Shown: piece after piece, positions 2,883 to 9,647 of the stretch
Numbering within the stretch: the first letter of the stretch is position 1
How the letters are laid out: every line of letters starts with the position of its first letter
Virus genome (UHGV): UHGV-0097019
Origin: a virus
Length of the DNA: 11,714 bases
Reading direction: 5' to 3' (one strand)
The notes under the pieces: model-generated
The model's database searches: none
Told to the model about the DNA's origin: nothing
Seen by the model: the letters and a program-made list of their open reading frames with translations, nothing else
Position numbers and translations under genes: made by a program

Positions 2883-4703
2883 TTATGCCTGAGTACGCAG
2901 CGCTTCAAGGCGGCGCAGGTCGAAGTCGTTCAGTTCGTCGGTGTAGTCAGCAGTGATTGGCGCTGGCCATTCACCTGTGTCGAATCCGGTTGCGATATTG
3001 CGCATCGCTTTGCGGTACTCGAGCATACCCAGCTCCAGTAGTTCAGCGGATGCCTCGATGATGGCGATCCAGTGGTAGTTCTCGTCTTTGTTGACGAAAA
3101 TCCAGAAGAACTGATCCAGCGCTGCGGTTTCGCAGTACATAGCCGCGCTCAGGTGATAATCACGTTCAATAATTTCCCGGTGTAGCCTGGCGCGCAGGCT
3201 TTCCTGCTTAACATTCCACATGCTGATGGTTTTCAGGTCAGCACCGATACGCACGCCGTCTAGGTCGATCTCAAGGTCAGGGCGCACACGAACTTCCAGT
3301 CCCGTCTCCTCGTCAAAGCCAAAGTAGCTCACCTCAACGGCGCGGCTCGGGTGGGTTAGCAGCATGCCTGCGGTCGGGTGCGAGAGCAGTGCTGACTGAA
3401 TTGCCTGCGCGGTGGCAAGTTGCTGGTGGGTAACCAGCACTTTCCCTTCCGGGTTGTTGCGCCACGCATCGAGCAGCTCGTCGGCGAACACTGCATCTGG
3501 TTTGACTGCCTTCACGGCCTGAATCAGATCGGCCTTCGTGCCAGAGACTTTCAGCGGTTGCAGCTTCTGAGCTTCCTGCGCGACCAGGTCAGGATTGATA
3601 ATCGCAAGTTGTTCGAGTAGTGCGTCGCGGCTGCCGCTGGTTTTAATCTGCGCTGGCAGGGTGGCGTTGTACTCTTTGATGCACGCCTTCATTGCTGTTG
3701 CTGTCTTCTTCTGATCTGCATCGATACGTTGGAATTCAGCTGGCAGCGCCATATAGTTCTGCGCCGTTTCATCCAGGCTAGCGCCCAGCGGCACCAGCGC
3801 TGGCAGGGTGGCGTTGTATTCATCCAGCAAAGCTTTGATATCGTCTGCGCTCAGTTGCGCTGGCAGGCTGGCGTTGTACTCATCAATAAACGCGCGGATC
3901 GTTGCCGTGGTGGTAAATGCACCTTCCGGAATTACGGGTTCAACGCTAAATTCTTCATCGAGCTGTTCTGGCTGCAACGCCAGCGCATGTACCAGGTTTC
4001 CCATGTCCAGCACTGAGGAGCGCTCTTTGACGATGGTTTTCTCAACGTGGCGCGCATTGAAGTACATCAGCGAAACGCGCGCATCTTTTACCTGGGTGGA
4101 ACTGATGCCGTTGGCAGCGTGGTAAACCTCGTTCGGCAGACCTTCATAGCGCCCAGGCTCGAAGTAATCGGGGTAAAAAACAGCTTGTTCGTCAGATTGC
4201 GCCTCTGGCTCGACGTGTGCCAAAACTGGTTCAGTCTGGTTTACAGAATCGCTATTTTGAGCGACAGATTCCGTATTTTGGTTTACATCGGCCTGCTGGC
4301 CGGGATGTGACTCTTCACCAGTTTCCAGACTGCTTTCGCCTGACTGCATTTCATTACCAACATTTTTTTCATCACTGACAGTTTCTTGAACCTGCACATT
4401 GCTGGTGGTTTCCGTAGCCTGTTTCGTGCCATGAGTTGCTGAGTTCTGCAGTAAAGCCGTAACATCGAATATTCCGTTGCCGACATTTTTAACCAGTTCT
4501 TGTTCGGCTTTATGTGGTTGTGCTGTCGCTTCCTCTGCGCGGCGGCGTGCTTCTTCTTCACGTACGCGTTGCAGGTTCTCTTCGTGAGTGCAGAAGGGTT
4601 TGCGTGGAGACTCCTTACTTTCAGGTTGGGGAATTTCCTGTGTTGCGGGCTCAGCTTCATGCAATGGCAATAACTCAACAGCAGCATTAAACGCAGCAGT
4701 CAT
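2883..4703 (-). CDS. recE: RecE-like exonuclease VIII (PD-(D/E)XK nuclease) with acidic/Q-rich N-terminal region and internal repeats
   Basis: 606-aa ORF. C-terminal half contains ...ETGLEVRVRPDLEIDLDGVRIGADLKT..., consistent with a PD-(D/E)XK motif, and an upstream YHAANGISSTQVK segment. Gene order with the recT-like gene matches Rac-type recET. N-terminal ~170 aa is low-complexity (E/Q/S/T-rich). Confidence 0.6.
   Translation of the reverse strand: MTAAFNAAVELLPLHEAEPATQEIPQPESKESPRKPFCTHEENLQRVREEEARRRAEEATAQPHKAEQELVKNVGNGIFDVTALLQNSATHGTKQATETTSNVQVQETVSDEKNVGNEMQSGESSLETGEESHPGQQADVNQNTESVAQNSDSVNQTEPVLAHVEPEAQSDEQAVFYPDYFEPGRYEGLPNEVYHAANGISSTQVKDARVSLMYFNARHVEKTIVKERSSVLDMGNLVHALALQPEQLDEEFSVEPVIPEGAFTTTATIRAFIDEYNASLPAQLSADDIKALLDEYNATLPALVPLGASLDETAQNYMALPAEFQRIDADQKKTATAMKACIKEYNATLPAQIKTSGSRDALLEQLAIINPDLVAQEAQKLQPLKVSGTKADLIQAVKAVKPDAVFADELLDAWRNNPEGKVLVTHQQLATAQAIQSALLSHPTAGMLLTHPSRAVEVSYFGFDEETGLEVRVRPDLEIDLDGVRIGADLKTISMWNVKQESLRARLHREIIERDYHLSAAMYCETAALDQFFWIFVNKDENYHWIAIIEASAELLELGMLEYRKAMRNIATGFDTGEWPAPITADYTDELNDFDLRRLEALRTQA
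3651..3882. repeat. Three near-identical 24-bp intragenic direct repeats (CGCTGGCAGG[G/C]TGGCGTTGTA[C/T]TC at 3651, 3799, 3859), each encoding EYNA(S/T)LPA in the RecE-like protein
   Basis: Seen directly. Reverse complement GAGTACAACGCCACCCTGCCAGCG translates to EYNATLPA. Protein context: IDEYNASLPAQ, LDEYNATLPAL, IKEYNATLPAQ. Confidence 0.8.
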
Positions 4704-4888
4704 GGTCCGGTTACTGTCTGTGTACCGTAGTGCTGATGAACCATGATGTTCTCCACTATTGCTGAGTGAACTTCGCTGGTGGTGCCGTGACGCTGATCTT
4801 CACAGTTGAGCGTTTTAACTCTGCAATTCACCACCGCGAAGCTCACTTCTGTGTTTGCCCTTGTCGCCAGGCTGGCGGAACGTTTCAA
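4700..4888 (-). CDS. Small upstream ORF translationally coupled to recE (62 aa from TTG, or only the last 14 codons from ATG 4742-4744)
   Basis: The stop codon overlaps the recE ATG (ATGA at 4700-4703). recE itself lacks a Shine-Dalgarno, whereas ATG 4744 has GGAG 6 nt upstream. The 62-aa version needs a TTG start; no recognisable family. Confidence 0.25.
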   Translation of the reverse strand: MKRSASLATRANTEVSFAVVNCRVKTLNCEDQRHGTTSEVHSAIVENIMVHQHYGTQTVTGP

Positions 4889-5727: not shown

Positions 5728-6009
5728 TTATTCCTCAAACATACTTTTTAAGGATTGATAAAAATCATAAGCCTTTTGTTTGCTTAAAGTCACAGACACA
5801 ACTTTGGTTCGCTGCATGCCCTTGACGACTATATCCGCATTATCCGTACCGATGATCGGGCTGCTATTCAGGAACACAAAATTGTAAACTTCGTAACCGG
5901 CATTTTGTGTGCCGATTGTTACGACACCGTCAGCATTGGTCTCGATGAAATTTTTCGCTTCGATTACATCATTAAGATGCATAAGTTCGACGGTTGTTTC
6001 TTTAGACAC
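5728..6009 (-). CDS. Uncharacterised small soluble protein (93 aa), first gene downstream of the repressor
   Basis: GTG start at 6007-6009 with GGAGG Shine-Dalgarno 5 nt upstream. Ends with a double stop (TAA TAA) 6 nt before the next gene's ATG. AT-rich. No family recognised. Confidence 0.65.
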   Translation of the reverse strand: MSKETTVELMHLNDVIEAKNFIETNADGVVTIGTQNAGYEVYNFVFLNSSPIIGTDNADIVVKGMQRTKVVSVTLSKQKAYDFYQSLKSMFEE

Positions 6010-6073
6010 CGAATCCTCCAGAAGATATTAAATCTTGAAATATTTTTATTACATGGAATTAGATACTACTGGT

Positions 6074-6463
6074 TTAGGTTTGCTCACCTTGCGATCGAAT
6101 CCGACCCTTCATGTACTTCTCGTACAGCTCATCTAACTCTTTCAGGCGAAGCGCAAAAATGCGGAGCATGTTCTGCTGCTCTTCTTCCGGTAACTGGCGG
6201 TAGAGCTCGAGCAAACGCTGTTCGTCCGGTTTGAGACCGTCTTTCTCCCCAACGTCTTCACCGAGTAGCCAGGCGACAGAAATACCAACAGCGTCGGCTA
6301 TGGCCAGTGCCGATTTCTTACTAATCACGCCTTTTTTGAACCAGCCGTTTACGGCCTGAGGGGTGACTCCAGCTATTCTTGCCATGTCTGCTTTGGTAAC
6401 GCCGCGATCAGTGATCTCAGTAAGGCGCTCCACCAGAACGAGGTTGGGTTCTTCTTTTCTCAT
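6074..6463 (-). CDS. Prophage repressor, XRE-type HTH, DicA/RacR-like
   Basis: 130 aa from ATG 6461-6463. N-terminal HTH (VTKADMARIAGVTPQAVNGWFKKGVISKKSALAIADAVGISVAWL). C-terminal LKPDEQRLLELYRQLPEEEQQNMLRIFALRL resembles the DicA tail (LSPKELELLELFNALPESEQ, from memory). No LexA-type S24 peptidase motif. The 219-aa ORF in the track is an upstream extension across the divergent promoter region and is rejected. Confidence 0.8.
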   Translation of the reverse strand: MRKEEPNLVLVERLTEITDRGVTKADMARIAGVTPQAVNGWFKKGVISKKSALAIADAVGISVAWLLGEDVGEKDGLKPDEQRLLELYRQLPEEEQQNMLRIFALRLKELDELYEKYMKGRIRSQGEQT

Positions 6464-6469
6464 ATGGTC

Positions 6470-6536
6470 ATTGTAAATATTTGGTTTATGCACGCAATAA
6501 ATCCAAAGTTTGCATGAAGTATAAATCTGTGGTTTA
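6470..6536. promoter_or_regulatory. Divergent immunity control region: PRM-like promoter for the repressor (-35 TTGCGT 6497..6492, 16-bp spacer, -10 TACAAT 6475..6470, minus strand) plus operator-like repeats (6474-6489, 6521-6536, and an inverted partner at about 6497-6507)
   Basis: The -10 ends about 6 nt before the repressor ATG and no Shine-Dalgarno is present, implying a leaderless transcript as for lambda cI from PRM. Repeat motif shared with the pL region. The rightward promoter for the cro-like gene is not cleanly resolved (candidate TTGCAT 6510-6515). Confidence 0.4.
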
Positions 6537-6565
6537 CTTCTGCTATCAATAAGCAGGAGAAGCAC

Positions 6566-6784
6566 ATGTCCGCACTCGATAAAGCAATTAAAGCCGCTGG
6601 CTCTGCCAGAAAGCTCAGCATCGCGCTTGGTGTGACGAGTATGTCTGTAAGTCATTGGAAGAATCGTGACCAAGGGATCGTCCCGCCAAGCTATATCTTC
6701 CCGATTTTCAAAATGACAGGCGTAACCCCCCACGAGCTGCGCCCTGATCTCTATCCAAATCCCACTGACGGATTACCAAAGTAG
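6566..6784 (+). CDS. ydaS: Cro-like HTH protein, YdaS family
   Basis: 72 aa, AGGAG Shine-Dalgarno. Divergent from the repressor. LSIALGVTSMSVSHWKNRDQGIVPPSYIFPIFKMTGVTPHELRPDLY parallels E. coli YdaS (LLGVSPPSVNQW...ELRPDI, recalled from memory). Confidence 0.75.
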   Translation: MSALDKAIKAAGSARKLSIALGVTSMSVSHWKNRDQGIVPPSYIFPIFKMTGVTPHELRPDLYPNPTDGLPK

Positions 6785-6795
6785 GAGCACTGACA

Positions 6796-7353
6796 ATGCA
6801 AACACTTTCTTTTCAACAGAATAACAGAGCGCCATCAGAGCACCTGAAATTCCAGTATCAACACAGTGAGGCTGAAGGCCAGCCGGTCGATCACCGGGCT
6901 ATCTGTTCTGCCGTCCGCGCCTGGGCGGCGGCAGAGGGCCGCGTGGCGGTCGCTCTGGCGATTAAAGAGGCTGCCGAACAGGCCGAGCTTGACAGCATTG
7001 ACATGACCGGCAGCGCCGATGTGTGGAACGTGAAGCTGTTTCGCTGGCTGGACAACCACGAGAAATCACCGGCCTACCGGGCGAACGTCGAGCAGCTGGC
7101 GCCGGTAATAATTTCGGTTCTGCCGCTGGCGTACCGGGATCGCGTGATTAAGCACGACTGCTTTGCGGTTCGTGTCGCCAGGTCGGTGAAAGAAGACGCT
7201 GAGGCGATACAGGCTGTCGTCCTCAAAGCCCCCAGACACGAACGGATGAAGGAAATCAGCGAGAGCATCGTAGCCAAGCTCTACCTGGACGGACCTGATT
7301 CTGTGGCGCCCATTATGGCGATGGTTACAACGATGCTGGGTGGTGCGCTATGA
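6796..7353 (+). CDS. YdaT-like / CII-like regulatory protein
   Basis: 185 aa, AGGAG Shine-Dalgarno 9 nt upstream, 11 nt after the ydaS-like stop. Assignment rests mainly on synteny (racR-ydaS-ydaT arrangement) plus loose similarity; not verified. Confidence 0.5.
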   Translation: MQTLSFQQNNRAPSEHLKFQYQHSEAEGQPVDHRAICSAVRAWAAAEGRVAVALAIKEAAEQAELDSIDMTGSADVWNVKLFRWLDNHEKSPAYRANVEQLAPVIISVLPLAYRDRVIKHDCFAVRVARSVKEDAEAIQAVVLKAPRHERMKEISESIVAKLYLDGPDSVAPIMAMVTTMLGGAL

Positions 7354-7437
7354 CGGGCTCAGAAATGGCGAAAGCCGCGGTGCTCGAACACCAACGGCTT
7401 TCAGGTGCAAAAACTGTGCGTAATTGCGGAGAACAGT

Positions 7438-8349
7438 ATGTCAAATACCGCTGAAATATTCAAATTCCCCACACAGCAGGGGAAACAGGAGAGCAGCATG
7501 GCTGAACTGGAGAAAGGCTATTTGCGCCTGGCCAACCAGATTCAGGATGCCCTGTGTATCGTCGAACTATCCGGGCGCGAGTTCCGGGTGCTGAATGCTA
7601 TCGTTCGTCTGACCTATGGCTGGTCTAAGAGTTCTGACCGCATCGCCAATAGCCTCATTGCAGATAAAACGACGCTGAAGGTGAAACACGTCTCTGAAGC
7701 CGTGTTGAGCCTTGCCTATCGGAACATCATCATCCTGCGCCGCATTGGGCAAACCAGATACATAGGGATTAATACCAGCCTGGATAAATGGGCGTATACC
7801 AAGCCAAATTGCATGAAGTGTCCAGCGGTGTTTCCTGCTGCTGAAGTTGTCACATGGGTTATTACCATCCCTGAATTCAGGGATAGCAATTTTACCCCTT
7901 CAATCATCCCTGAAAACGGGGATAACCATCCCCAAAAACAGGGAGAGGTATCCCTGAAAACAGGGAACACCAAAGACATTCTTCCAAATACAAATATAAA
8001 TACAGATCTAACCCCCTCTAATCCCCCAAAGGGGAAGGGTAAGTTTGACCCGCTGACGATTCCCGTTCCTGAGTGGCTTGATTCTGTGTCCTGGAGTGAG
8101 TGGGTGGCCTACCGCCAACAGTCTGGCAAAGCCATCAAGACCGAAATGACGGTCACCAAAGCATTCAAGTTGCTCAAGGCTTGCCTGGACGCTGGGCATG
8201 ACCCCGTTGATGTGATCAACACCAGTATCGCCAACGGGTACCAGGGACTGTTTAAACCGAAGTTCGCTCTCAACGCTCGCAAAACGGGCAGGGATGTGAA
8301 CCGCATTTCTGAGCCAGACAAAACAATCCCACCCGGATTCAGGGGGTAA
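7438..8349 (+). CDS. Replication initiator with lambda O-like N-terminal domain
   Basis: 303 aa from ATG 7438 (GGAGAA Shine-Dalgarno; the track starts at GTG 7405). N-terminus NTAEIFKFP...LSGREFRVLNAIVRLTYGWSKSSDRIANSLIADKTTL matches the Phage_rep_O N-terminal pattern. Iterons lie in the linker-coding part, as in lambda O. Confidence 0.8.
   Translation: MSNTAEIFKFPTQQGKQESSMAELEKGYLRLANQIQDALCIVELSGREFRVLNAIVRLTYGWSKSSDRIANSLIADKTTLKVKHVSEAVLSLAYRNIIILRRIGQTRYIGINTSLDKWAYTKPNCMKCPAVFPAAEVVTWVITIPEFRDSNFTPSIIPENGDNHPQKQGEVSLKTGNTKDILPNTNINTDLTPSNPPKGKGKFDPLTIPVPEWLDSVSWSEWVAYRQQSGKAIKTEMTVTKAFKLLKACLDAGHDPVDVINTSIANGYQGLFKPKFALNARKTGRDVNRISEPDKTIPPGFRG
7867..7967. repeat. Lambda-type replication origin iterons inside the O-like gene: four 18-bp dyad-symmetric repeats, followed by a moderately AT-rich stretch to about 8010
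   Basis: ATCCCTGAATTCAGGGAT (7867-7884), ATCCCTGAAAACGGGGAT (7906-7923), ATCCCCAAAAACAGGGAG (7928-7945), ATCCCTGAAAACAGGGAA (7950-7967); the last three are spaced 22 bp. Close to the lambda ori iteron consensus TCCCTCAAAACGAGGGA (from memory). Confidence 0.65.
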
Positions 8350-8351
8350 GC

Positions 8352-8690
8352 ATGCCAAGACCAAATACACCAGAAGAGCAGGCGGCACTTATCCGGGTGA
8401 TCATCGAAGAGGTGAAAATCCGTGGACGCTTAACCGTTAGCGAGGCATCACAGATGTTGTCGCTGCATCGTCAGACTGCTGAGAAGTATTTCCGCGTAGC
8501 AGCCGAACGCGGCGAACTCATTCGTTACGGTCGTCTAGATTTGTTCAGGGACCCAAAGGCTGTAATTGATTTCGATCTCCAACGATTCTCATACGGTTCG
8601 AGTAAGCCTCTGATTGAGTTACCAGCAGATTTTCGGGGAAGTGCGGTTATGCGTCGGGTTATAGATATCGTGGGGAGGATGCCAGCATGA
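8352..8690 (+). CDS. Hypothetical protein with HTH-like segment, immediately after the O-like gene
   Basis: 112 aa; ATG 2 nt after the O-like stop with a G-rich Shine-Dalgarno. LTVSEASQMLSLHRQTAEKYF looks like a helix-turn-helix. Not a recognisable P/DnaC-type helicase loader. Confidence 0.55.
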   Translation: MPRPNTPEEQAALIRVIIEEVKIRGRLTVSEASQMLSLHRQTAEKYFRVAAERGELIRYGRLDLFRDPKAVIDFDLQRFSYGSSKPLIELPADFRGSAVMRRVIDIVGRMPA

Positions 8691-8881
8691 CAACCGAAAA
8701 ACTGGCGTTGAATTATGACCCAGCCGATCCCGACAAGATGCGATTACCGGCTGGCATAACATGTGGTAATTGCCACCATATCCATCGTTGTAAAGCAATT
8801 TTTGGACACACGGAGTCGAACACATATTGCGATTGGTCACCGTCGCGATTTACTGCTGGCATTGGCGTGAAGGGGGTGTGA
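8687..8881 (+). CDS. Small Cys/His-rich protein (putative zinc-binding)
   Basis: 64 aa; ATGA start/stop overlap with the previous gene. Contains CGNCHHIHRC...C. Confidence 0.5.
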   Translation: MTTEKLALNYDPADPDKMRLPAGITCGNCHHIHRCKAIFGHTESNTYCDWSPSRFTAGIGVKGV

Positions 8882-9089: not shown

Positions 9090-9647
9090 ATGACAACTAA
9101 CAACCACCCGGCGCACGGTCCTGTATCACTTGATCGCTTGCACCAGATACGCGAAATACTCAGCAAAGCAGCAGCACAAAGCGACGGCGGTAATCTCGGC
9201 TACGCAATGGCTGATGCAGTGAAGGTGATTGATGGGGTTCTGGAGTCGATAGCCCGTGAGCAGGTACGCTGTGAACATGCAGCATGGTCAGATGAAACAT
9301 TCGGCGATGTCGGTCCAGTTGGTCCGCTGAAGCACCTTTCCAAAGAAGCTATCGAGGCTGCTGCGGAACCAGACGAGATGAGCGAATGGGCTGACATGCA
9401 ATTCCTGTTATGGGATGCGCAACGTCGTGCCGGTATCAGTGATAAGCAGATTACCCTGGCGATGGTAGAAAAGCTGGCGGTTAACAAAAACCGCCAGTGG
9501 CCAGAGCCGAAAGACGGTGAACCGCGACTGCATATCAAAGCGCAGTCAGAATCGGTGCTTCCTGGAATTGAATGCGATATCTGCGGACATGTATCTACTG
9601 ACCCAGAGGGACGGCACTACTACTGCGAGGATAACAGTAATGATTGA
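9090..9647 (+). CDS. DUF550-like protein (MazG-like nucleotide pyrophosphohydrolase family, predicted)
   Basis: 185 aa with GAGGA Shine-Dalgarno. The segment SEWADMQFLLWDAQRRAGISDKQITLAMVEKLAVNKNRQWPEPKDGEPRLHIK resembles DUF550 proteins common in lambdoid nin regions (from memory, unverified). Confidence 0.6.
   Translation: MTTNNHPAHGPVSLDRLHQIREILSKAAAQSDGGNLGYAMADAVKVIDGVLESIAREQVRCEHAAWSDETFGDVGPVGPLKHLSKEAIEAAAEPDEMSEWADMQFLLWDAQRRAGISDKQITLAMVEKLAVNKNRQWPEPKDGEPRLHIKAQSESVLPGIECDICGHVSTDPEGRHYYCEDNSND

Follow-up and report, generated by a model that had tools for sequence, protein, structure and literature searches.

A probable ori-lambda-type replication origin within the O-like initiator gene of a Gifsy/Rac-like E. 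coli prophage

Does the O-like gene of UHGV-0097019 carry a replication origin on the plan of ori-lambda, and can the prophage still use it? The gene lies at 7438–8349 (plus strand) of the window, by which we mean the whole 11,714-nucleotide stretch that was analysed, and encodes 303 amino acids plus the stop codon. The mechanically derived open reading frame (314 aa) begins at GTG 7405. ATG 7438 is the likely start, given that a GGAG lies 8 nt upstream of it, that the identical gene in RefSeq, called 'replication protein', starts there, and that it aligns with Met1 of lambda O. The N-terminal Phage_rep_O domain, the inferred iteron binder, is encoded at 7498–7791 (plus strand; aa 21–118, or aa 32–129 of the 314-aa frame). 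It matches Pfam PF04492 with E 1.3e-27 (96.6 bits, cut-off 28.7) and NCBIfam phage_O_Nterm TIGR01610 with E 1.9e-26 (92.3 bits, cut-off 45.5), and the protein also matches PHROG 678, 'replication initiation O-like', with E 3e-81. By BLASTP, the N-terminus is 40% identical to aa 1–115 of lambda O, and no similarity to lambda O was found beyond aa 115. The original prediction of an O-like gene therefore holds for the N-terminal half, while the C-terminal half departs from lambda O and ends in a DnaT-type tail. The full-length AF2 model was poor (mean pLDDT 45, and below 50 in the N-terminal domain), so the N-terminal DNA-binding fold is assigned from sequence homology alone.

The linker-coding part of the gene, between the Phage_rep_O domain and the C-terminal domain, contains four dyad repeats of 17–18 bp with the consensus ATCCCYNAAAACNGGGA. 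The distal repeat, iteron 1 (7867–7884, ATCCCTGAATTCAGGGAT), is palindromic at all 18 positions and has an EcoRI site (GAATTC) inside. A 21-bp spacer (7885–7905) separates it from iteron 2 (7906–7923, ATCCCTGAAAACGGGGAT), which is followed by iteron 3 (7928–7945, ATCCCCAAAAACAGGGAG) and iteron 4 (7950–7967, ATCCCTGAAAACAGGGAA). The start-to-start distances are thus 39, 22 and 22 bp. The array covers codons 144–177 of the 303, at nt 430–530 of 912, in the middle of the gene. The four repeats, the 22-bp phasing of three of them, their place in the linker and the palindromic first iteron had all been claimed beforehand, and each was found as described. When the 11.7-kb window was searched with ATCCCTGAAAACAGGGA, allowing up to 3 mismatches, the four iterons were the only sites; they gave 5 matches on both strands, versus 0.04 expected from dinucleotide-preserving shuffles, and none of 200 such shuffles attained 5. 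Iterons 2, 3 and 4 fall in frames 0, +1 and +2 and encode the unrelated peptides IPENGD, HPQKQGE and VSLKTGN, respectively, indicating that it is the DNA, rather than the protein, that is repetitive. The spacer was considered as a degenerate iteron and rejected, because the CCC..GGG core is absent from it in every relative and its sequence is unconstrained. Its length is kept among the relatives, but its sequence is not, with a column identity of 0.55–0.70 at all three codon positions.

Iteron 4 adjoins an AT-rich tract, the presumed DNA-unwinding element (7968–8010, 43 bp), with 21 A against 10 T on its A-rich top strand. The GC content of the tract is 28%, as compared to 50% for the O-like gene. 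By nearest-neighbour energy, no 40-step stretch of the gene is less stable than 7972–8012 (z = 2.8 relative to the whole window), in agreement with the AT-rich stretch that had been predicted to follow the repeats. The tract is nearly invariant among the relatives (third-position identity 0.93–0.99), and it includes a conserved GATC at 8005–8008. It is followed by a conserved right-hand element (8011–8037), in which a GC-rich dyad, ATCCCCCAAAGGGGA, occupies 8021–8035. The third-position identity is 0.97 over 8005–8034 and falls to 0.56 from 8035. Of the span 7867–8010 that was first proposed for the origin, the start is thus retained, while the right end has to be moved, as the constraint continues for about 27 bp more, to about 8037. 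The right-hand dyad does not qualify as a canonical iteron, with a TCCC-to-GGGA gap of 6 nt versus 9 in the iterons. The role of this element is doubtful, given that a natural variant with an insertion replaces it with another dyad, TTCCCTGCCGGAAGGGAT. Neither a DnaA box closer than 1 mismatch nor an IHF consensus is present in or near the origin.

Comparison with 15 related prophages revealed where the DNA itself is constrained. The third-codon identity is 0.94 in 7906–8037 versus 0.64 elsewhere (Mann-Whitney p = 1e-13), and 80% of the third positions are invariant within this interval as compared to 19% outside, indicating that selection acts on the DNA. The frozen synonymous sites start at iteron 2 and continue through iterons 3 and 4 and the AT-rich tract, ending about 27 bp to the right of it. 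In the Phage_rep_O domain, codon positions 1 and 2 are 0.96–0.99 identical among the relatives and the third is 0.66 identical.

A profile of 66 distinct iteron copies from 20 loci has invariant A1 T2 C3 C4 C5 and G14 G15 G16 A17, together with A9. These invariant outer positions would suit a symmetric dimer site. The centre of iteron 1 differs among the relatives, being AATTC, AAAAC, AAATC or AATCC. All of the close relatives examined have in common a layout of N repeats, a fixed 39-bp gap and three further repeats, where N is 1 or 3–4. The gap measures 39 bp in 19 related loci, and only the divergent locus L019 deviates, with 26 bp. Two decaying relatives, L018 and L020, carry frameshifts within the iteron array, whereas the window copy has none. 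In the wider initiator family, protein-length variants point to longer and shorter arrays, and one variant has an insertion of about 120 aa beside the AT-rich tract.

All of the features of the ori-lambda layout that can be tested at the sequence level are therefore present: an O-type N-terminal domain, iterons in the linker, a junction that aligns with that of lambda (see below) and frozen synonymous sites. We conclude that 7867–8037 is very probably the replication origin of a Gifsy/Rac-like lambdoid E. coli prophage, built on the ori-lambda plan inside its initiator gene.

The C-terminal part of the initiator is unrelated to that of lambda O. The C-terminal domain (8041–8289, plus strand) is predicted to form a three-helix bundle, with an AF2 pLDDT of 81–92 for the three helices. 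PHROG 6451, 'primosomal protein', matched aa 176–303 of the full protein with E 1.9e-20, and the C-terminal domain as a separate query with E 1.5e-19. A Pfam search with this domain gave no match, and Foldseek gave none in the PDB at E<1, DnaT (2ru8) being at rank 13 with E = 7.7. A word-indexed homologue search with the domain alone returned 11 near-identical fragments, which were useless for a deep profile. The domain is followed by a tail, RDVNRISEPDKTIPPGFRG (8290–8346, plus strand), which is the motif of the extreme C-terminus of host DnaT: 15 of its 19 residues are identical to aa 161–179 of E. coli DnaT (RDVNTVSEPDSQIPPGFRG), and it is C-terminal in both proteins. The hhalign probability of this match is 96%, and positions 154–179 of the 179 in the NCBIfam DnaT model were matched. 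The tail is conserved in all of the initiator-family members seen. When a profile of 89 C-terminal domains was compared with DnaT, only the final 21 residues aligned, and for the rest of the domain, homology to the three-helix, ssDNA-binding bundle of DnaT was not demonstrable by profile alignment or fold searches.

The upstream immunity region contains a repressor-like HTH gene (6074–6493, minus strand; Pfam HTH_3, and so annotated in RefSeq for the identical locus), followed by the YdaS (Cro-like) and YdaT genes (6566–7353, plus strand; Pfam YdaS_toxin and YdaT_toxin), with the same strand and order as in the relatives. Given this gene order, in which YdaS, YdaT and O all point rightward, the YdaS and YdaT genes would head a rightward operon reading into O, and early transcription would cross the origin. 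A consensus promoter scan of 5900–8800 gave matches at or below chance. One promoter match inside the array and a minus-strand 'terminator' at 7956–7939 were dismissed as by-products of the iteron dyads.

Downstream, a DUF977 gene (8352–8690, plus strand; Pfam DUF977) begins 2 nt downstream of the O stop codon, in the slot of the relatives' helicase loader. Every relative has a gene of about 250 aa directly after O, which is IstB/DnaC-like in the loci where it was scanned (L003, L004 and L037). In contrast, no DnaC-like or P-like loader was found in the window, nor among the genes from int to lysis in the identical 19-kb E. coli locus. The exact O protein is followed by DUF977 in all 10 places shown, among the 19 contigs read, and the DNA homology to the relatives ends at 8349–8354. 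The loader gene has thus been lost in this E. coli prophage lineage, whereas the relatives carry a DnaC homologue after O. The host-like proline in the tail (IPPGFRG) could be taken for an adaptation to this loss, but IPPGFRG also occurs in tail variants that differ elsewhere (RDVNQISEPDTTIPPGFRG and RDVNHISEPDNTIPPGFRG), and this idea was abandoned. The window copy has another lesion in the recE-kilR region, where a deletion of 1.56 kb removed the 5' part of recE, ydaE and kilR, consistent with a decaying prophage.

The absence of the loader gene makes the present activity of the origin uncertain. The strongest alternative is accordingly that the origin sequence is intact but is a relic, from which the prophage has been unable to replicate since the loader gene was lost; the repeats would then survive only owing to the youth of the lineage, or as coding sequence for a needed part of a protein that is retained on other grounds. 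We consider this a serious possibility, somewhat short of an even chance. Besides the missing loader, which every relative retains, and the loss of recE sequence, ydaE and kilR, it is favored by the truncation of neighbouring genes in some copies. On the other hand, the O protein is full length and 100% conserved on the 19 contigs read (its cluster has 146 member sequences), and the array is free of the frameshifts that mark the truly decaying L018 and L020. Moreover, the phage DnaC homologue of the relatives shares 49% identity with host DnaC over the full length of the latter, and the initiator tail mimics host DnaT, which makes the use of host factors plausible. This alternative bears on the present activity of the element and not on its identity.

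A different identity is proposed by the view that the dyads work at the RNA level, forming hairpins or an antisense terminator in the O transcript by which translation or transcription is regulated. Each repeat can be folded into a stem of 5–6 bp, and the minus-strand hairpin with a T-run at 7956–7939 was flagged by the terminator scan. This hairpin is composed of halves of neighbouring iterons, and the terminator-like matches in the region arise from the dyads themselves. Among the 66 distinct iterons, positions 6 and 13 are C and A in 29 and T and G in 17, and the complementary pairs T/A and C/G together make up just 20; pairing within the stem has therefore not been preserved. The conservation also extends over the unstructured AT-rich tract, and the whole window gave no match in scans for Rfam families or tRNAs. 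We therefore regard a role as RNA structure as very improbable. Even less credible is a tandem repeat of the protein, a repetitive linker with no role for the DNA, for although the linker is of low complexity and rich in Pro, Gly and Asn, and IPE..D is encoded by iterons 1 and 2 alike, the 22-bp period is no multiple of 3 and places iterons 2–4 in three frames, the third codon positions are here better conserved than the first, the reverse of selection on protein, and the lambda iterons, which are known to be bound by O, have the same core (PMC7466680).

With the array read as an origin, its mode of action may be proposed by homology to lambda. Dimers of the O-like protein would use the N-terminal Phage_rep_O domain to bind the dyad iterons, by analogy with lambda O, and the three 22-bp-phased iterons, together with the distal iteron 39 bp upstream, could build an O-some-like complex. 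Such a complex would strain and open the adjacent 43-bp AT-rich tract, where the replicative helicase DnaB would then be loaded. The recruiting end of the initiator would be the small helical domain with the DnaT tail motif, instead of the P-binding domain of lambda O. In the relatives, the DnaT-tailed initiator presumably pairs with the phage DnaC homologue, the gene for which starts 2 nt further on, as in the host dnaT-dnaC operon. According to PMC4132743 and PMC13377028, the means of DnaB/DnaC recruitment has yet to be established. A term search of PMC13377028 found no mention of the DnaT tail, and the DopC paper (PMC5509034) was the only literature found on DnaT with a prophage O protein and DnaC.

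In the present prophage, firing would be possible only if host DnaC substitutes for the phage homologue. With origin and initiator intact, and with the host DnaT tail at the end of the initiator, the origin may fire by direct use of host primosome factors, through DnaB-DnaC or PriA-dependent loading, and the prophage would be a loader-independent lambdoid replicon. We consider this unlikely, although far from negligible. If true, it would point to the DnaT tail as a portable docking peptide, common to phage initiators and the restart proteins of the host. The loader-less lineage with its DnaT-tailed initiator offers a ready test of what the conserved tail binds. The consensus ATCCCYNAAAACNGGGA, the 22-bp phasing and the fixed 39-bp gap allow origins to be annotated throughout the Gifsy/Rac-like group. 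In addition, the family constitutes a natural origin series, with 1+3 and 3–4+3 arrays, frameshifted arrays and an insertion variant, for questions of iteron number and geometry.

As an origin, the element is of the ordinary lambda-style kind and adds little to the knowledge of lambdoid phages. The lambda origin (NC_001416, 39034–39168) likewise consists of four dyad iterons with an ATCCC...GGGA core inside the initiator gene, annotated in the middle of O at about nt 349–433 of 900. The spacing is close to two helical turns in both, with 20, 24 and 23 bp in lambda and 22 and 22 bp here, and the CCC-to-GGG distance is 8 nt in all copies here and 8–9 in lambda. The alignment with the lambda iterons, proposed as a check of the original prediction, supports it in the core and also at the junction of the last iteron and the AT-rich tract, which aligns base for base (GGGAACACCAAAGACAT here, GGGGACACAAAAGACAC in lambda). 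The junction segment GGGRACACMAAAGACA aligns with lambda, and the first ~20 bp of the A-rich, AT-rich tract match. Unlike lambda, the array is split 1+3 by the fixed 39-bp gap, the C-terminal half of the initiator is unrelated and a P gene is not next to O. In lambda and phi80, a palindrome lies to the right of the AT-rich tract; here its position is taken by the right-hand element 8011–8037, the sequence of which differs from that of the lambda palindrome.

Among other lambdoid phages, the Stx phages P27 and 933W have ori-lambda-type origins with 6 iterons versus 4 in lambda; their extra distal iterons are weakly bound and yet needed in vivo, while the iterons nearest the AT-rich tract are sufficient in vitro (PMC7466680). 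Variable iteron number, and a distal iteron like that at 7867–7884, have a precedent in these phages, although, unlike the present prophage, they retain O and P proteins of the lambda type, and their iteron sequences are lambda-type as well. Gene 15 of phi80 also carries mid-gene iterons, to which an AT-rich tract with AGATCT is joined on the downstream side, and its N-terminal domain is 40% identical to that of the O-like protein. However, its iterons (TTCCCGAAAACGGGAA) are spaced by 21 bp with 6 nt between TCCC and GGGA, its right arm is nearly identical to that of lambda and its partner, gene 14, is P-like.

The closest phage relatives are Gifsy-1, Gifsy-2 and SPN3UB of Salmonella, the initiators of which ('PrpO') are 74% identical to ours over the full length. 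They have the same iteron consensus, 39-bp gap, three proximal iterons and DnaT-type tail, and their AT-rich tract and right element are nearly identical to those in the window. No description of a Gifsy-type origin was found in the literature. Gifsy-2 differs in having 4+3 iterons and an initiator about 22 aa longer, and its gene order is O, the DnaC homologue and then DUF977, while in the window O is followed directly by DUF977.

The combination of an O-like N-terminus with a DnaT C-terminal motif (PDB 2ru8), replacing the C-terminal domain of lambda O, is also found in DopC, a domesticated O-like protein of Cellvibrionales and Oceanospirillales (Brezellec et al. 2017, PMC5509034). In contrast to the present initiator, which belongs to a prophage and has iterons in its gene, DopC is chromosomal, has a P-like partner and is encoded by a gene without iterons. 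Host DnaT differs from the initiator in lacking both an O-type DNA-binding domain and an origin, but the E. coli dnaT-dnaC pair has the same arrangement as the phage relatives, with a 2-nt interval between the stop codon of the gene for the DnaT-tailed protein and the start of a DnaC-type gene.

The four dyad repeats claimed in the original prediction are present inside the O-like initiator gene. Iteron 1 (7867-7884, ATCCCTGAATTCAGGGAT) is a perfect 18-bp palindrome containing the predicted EcoRI site, and is followed by iteron 2 (7906-7923, ATCCCTGAAAACGGGGAT), iteron 3 (7928-7945, ATCCCCAAAAACAGGGAG) and iteron 4 (7950-7967, ATCCCTGAAAACAGGGAA), with start-to-start distances of 39, 22 and 22 bp. 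When up to three mismatches to the consensus are allowed, these sites are the only matches in the whole 11.7-kb window, whereas 0.04 matches are expected by chance from shuffled sequences. The iterons occupy codons 144-177, between the N-terminal and C-terminal domains, as expected for the linker-coding part of the gene. The stretch predicted to be moderately AT-rich is a 43-bp tract directly after iteron 4 (7968-8010), with 28% GC as compared to 50% for the gene; its top strand is A-rich, and it contains the least stable 40-step stretch of the gene. A single GATC (8005-8008, in AGATCT), possibly a Dam/SeqA site, lies at the right end of the tract and is kept in 17 of the 19 relatives. The corresponding position also reads AGATCT in phi80, but not in lambda.

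The gene itself is listed as an ORF at 7405-8349 on the plus strand. Its true start is almost certainly ATG 7438 rather than 7405, given the upstream GGAG, the RefSeq start in an identical E. coli locus and the alignment with Met1 of lambda O. The 303-aa product contains the phage O N-terminal domain (Pfam PF04492, E 1.3e-27; TIGR01610, E 1.9e-26) and is 40% identical to residues 1-115 of lambda O. The gene order, with integrase, RecT, RecE, an HTH repressor, YdaS (Cro-like) and YdaT leading to O, is that of a Rac/Gifsy-like prophage early region. The O gene is 100% identical to that of three complete E. coli chromosomes, and the nearest phages by O protein are Gifsy-1, Gifsy-2 and SPN3UB (74% identity). 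The listed ORF opens, at 7405, with ~65 nt that match the O genes of many otherwise unrelated E. coli prophages at 94-100%; this 5' match occurs in 51 genomes, and in phage mEp237 too, with the remainder of the O gene unmatched there. This places a sharp mosaic boundary at 7405-7437, where the replication module begins on its 5' side.

To compare the element among relatives, we gathered 20 related loci from other Enterobacteriaceae and one further E. coli locus, and aligned the 15 intact genes. At third codon positions, the mean pairwise identity was 0.64 outside the origin, with 19% invariant, as compared to 0.94 inside 7906-8037, with 80% invariant (Mann-Whitney p = 1e-13). The first and second codon positions showed no such rise and lay below the third positions across the repeat segment, indicating selection on the DNA itself. 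As a period of 22 bp is not divisible by three, the frame shifts from one phased iteron to the next: iterons 2, 3 and 4 fall in frames 0, +1 and +2, and are translated as IPENGD, HPQKQGE and VSLKTGN, respectively. A repeat at the protein level is contradicted by these three frames, together with the third-position conservation. Across 20 loci, 66 distinct iterons gave a profile that is invariant at A1 T2 C3 C4 C5, A9 and G14 G15 G16 A17, and fits a symmetric protein site rather than a hairpin. The hairpin reading of the dyads is argued against by the variable pair 6/13 (C/A 29, T/G 17, T/A 16 and C/G 4), which is mostly non-complementary. No Rfam match was found within the window.

The constrained block consists of iterons 2-4, the AT-rich tract and ~27 bp more (8011-8037), which hold a GC-rich dyad, ATCCCCCAAAGGGGA; third-position conservation is back to 0.56 from 8035. 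Thus, the contents of the predicted interval, 7867-8010, were borne out, but its right end was not, as the constraint reaches ~8037 and the element is longer. The 424-446-aa forms of the protein (3076-3470 in the related locus L037, protein P0077 and similar) carry a ~120-aa insertion, without a Pfam match, immediately behind the AT-rich tract. It puts other sequence in place of the right-hand element, with a different, iteron-core-like dyad, TTCCCTGCCGGAAGGGAT, which in L037 lies near the AT-rich tract, 76 bp from where the last iteron starts. The necessity of 8011-8037 is therefore uncertain.

The layout of the array is shared by 19 related loci, in which three iterons at 22-bp spacing beside the AT-rich tract are separated from further iterons by a 39-bp gap, with the divergent locus L019 (26 bp) as the sole exception. 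Upstream of the gap, a single iteron is present in the window and in nine further loci, and ten others, Gifsy-2 among them, have three or four. The gap is fixed in length but free in sequence (identity 0.55-0.70 at all codon positions), which points to a spatial constraint. The proteins of the family fall into length classes of ~303-307 and ~323-328 aa, as expected if the 22-bp units change three at a time (66 bp, or 22 codons) with the frame kept. The iteron block is duplicated in a 360-aa form, and iterons are fewer in the shorter forms. In two Leclercia loci (L018, 3571-3614; L020, 3490-3660), 1-bp indels in or beside the array, for example one resulting in a spacing of 21 bp in place of 22 bp, break the O frame; these look like decaying copies, in contrast to the intact copy of the window. 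Overall, the element very probably acts in cis as a genuine origin in this phage group.

In its C-terminal half, the initiator does not resemble lambda O. The final 19 residues (RDVNRISEPDKTIPPGFRG, 8290-8346) are identical at 15 of 19 positions to the very end of DnaT from E. coli (RDVNTVSEPDSQIPPGFRG; hhalign probability 96%), and this motif is kept in every family member seen. Term searches of a 2026 paper on the preprimosome structure (PMC13377028) yielded no reference to the DnaT tail. In all of the relatives, a ~250-aa gene begins 2 nt after the O stop codon, or overlaps it, and is DnaC/IstB-like in the loci scanned (L003, L004 and L037); the junction or loader lies at 3511-4274 in L003, 4942-5694 in L024 and 2476-2479 in L026. 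Over its full length, the Gifsy-2 loader protein shares 49% identity with E. coli DnaC. The stop-2 nt-ATG junction of the relatives copies that of the host dnaT-dnaC operon, and hints at a common ancestry of the two modules.

In the window, the DUF977 gene (8352-8690) directly follows O in the loader's place, and the DNA homology with the relatives ends at 8349-8354. The regions 3' of O (8352-8881 and 9090-9647) hold the DUF977 gene, a 64-aa ORF and a dATP/dGTP pyrophosphohydrolase (DUF550) gene; the DUF977 product is classed in PHROG as 'DNA binding protein' and weakly resembles Ren-like exclusion proteins. The loader-less arrangement occurs in 10 of the 10 places shown, among the 19 contigs examined with the exact O protein, and in the identical E. 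coli locus the annotation between int and the lysis genes includes no loader. In Gifsy-2 and an E. coli prophage with a 95% identical DUF977, the DUF977 gene comes after the loader. In the simplest reading, the loader would have been lost at the module junction. The prophage of E. coli PSJ-22 (L001) is 99.9% identical to the window apart from ~1.56 kb, L001 4744-6302, that the window lacks at a junction at 4708-4713. This deletion takes away ydaE, most of a kilR-like gene and the 5' third of recE; a 606-aa RecE C-terminal ORF is left (2883-4703, minus strand). The loss of kil-type genes is a frequent step in prophage domestication. The origin and initiator are both intact, but the phage loader is missing and this copy also has the recE-kilR deletion; it is possible, though somewhat less likely than not, that the origin is inert in this prophage at present. 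It is unlikely that host factors by themselves suffice for the DnaT-tailed initiator.

The literature search found no published description of a Gifsy-type origin. In lambda, four iterons are annotated in gene O (39034-39118), with spacings of 20, 24 and 23 bp, and the AT-rich tract then follows. The proposed alignment with these iterons revealed an ATCCC...GGGA core common to lambda (ATCCCTCAAAACGAGGGA and variants) and the window, and the two sequences also line up directly where the last iteron meets the AT-rich tract (GGGAACACCAAAGACATTCTTCCAAA in the window; GGGGACACAAAAGACACTATTACAAA in lambda). In gene 15 of phi80, the iterons (TTCCCGAAAACGGGAA) are spaced 21 bp apart and precede an AT-rich tract, and the right arm is nearly identical to that of lambda. 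The half-sites of the window are common to lambda and phi80, whereas its inner spacing and right arm are peculiar to it, which would make it a third specificity type within this common layout. Lambda and Stx phages share this architecture, with four or six iterons; strong binding occurs solely at the four iterons nearest the AT-rich tract, and the distal iterons are nonetheless required in vivo (PMC7466680). From the homology, the frame analysis and the strong DNA-level conservation, the predicted ori-lambda layout stands, and the element would be a further member of the well-known class of lambda-type iteron origins inside the initiator gene.
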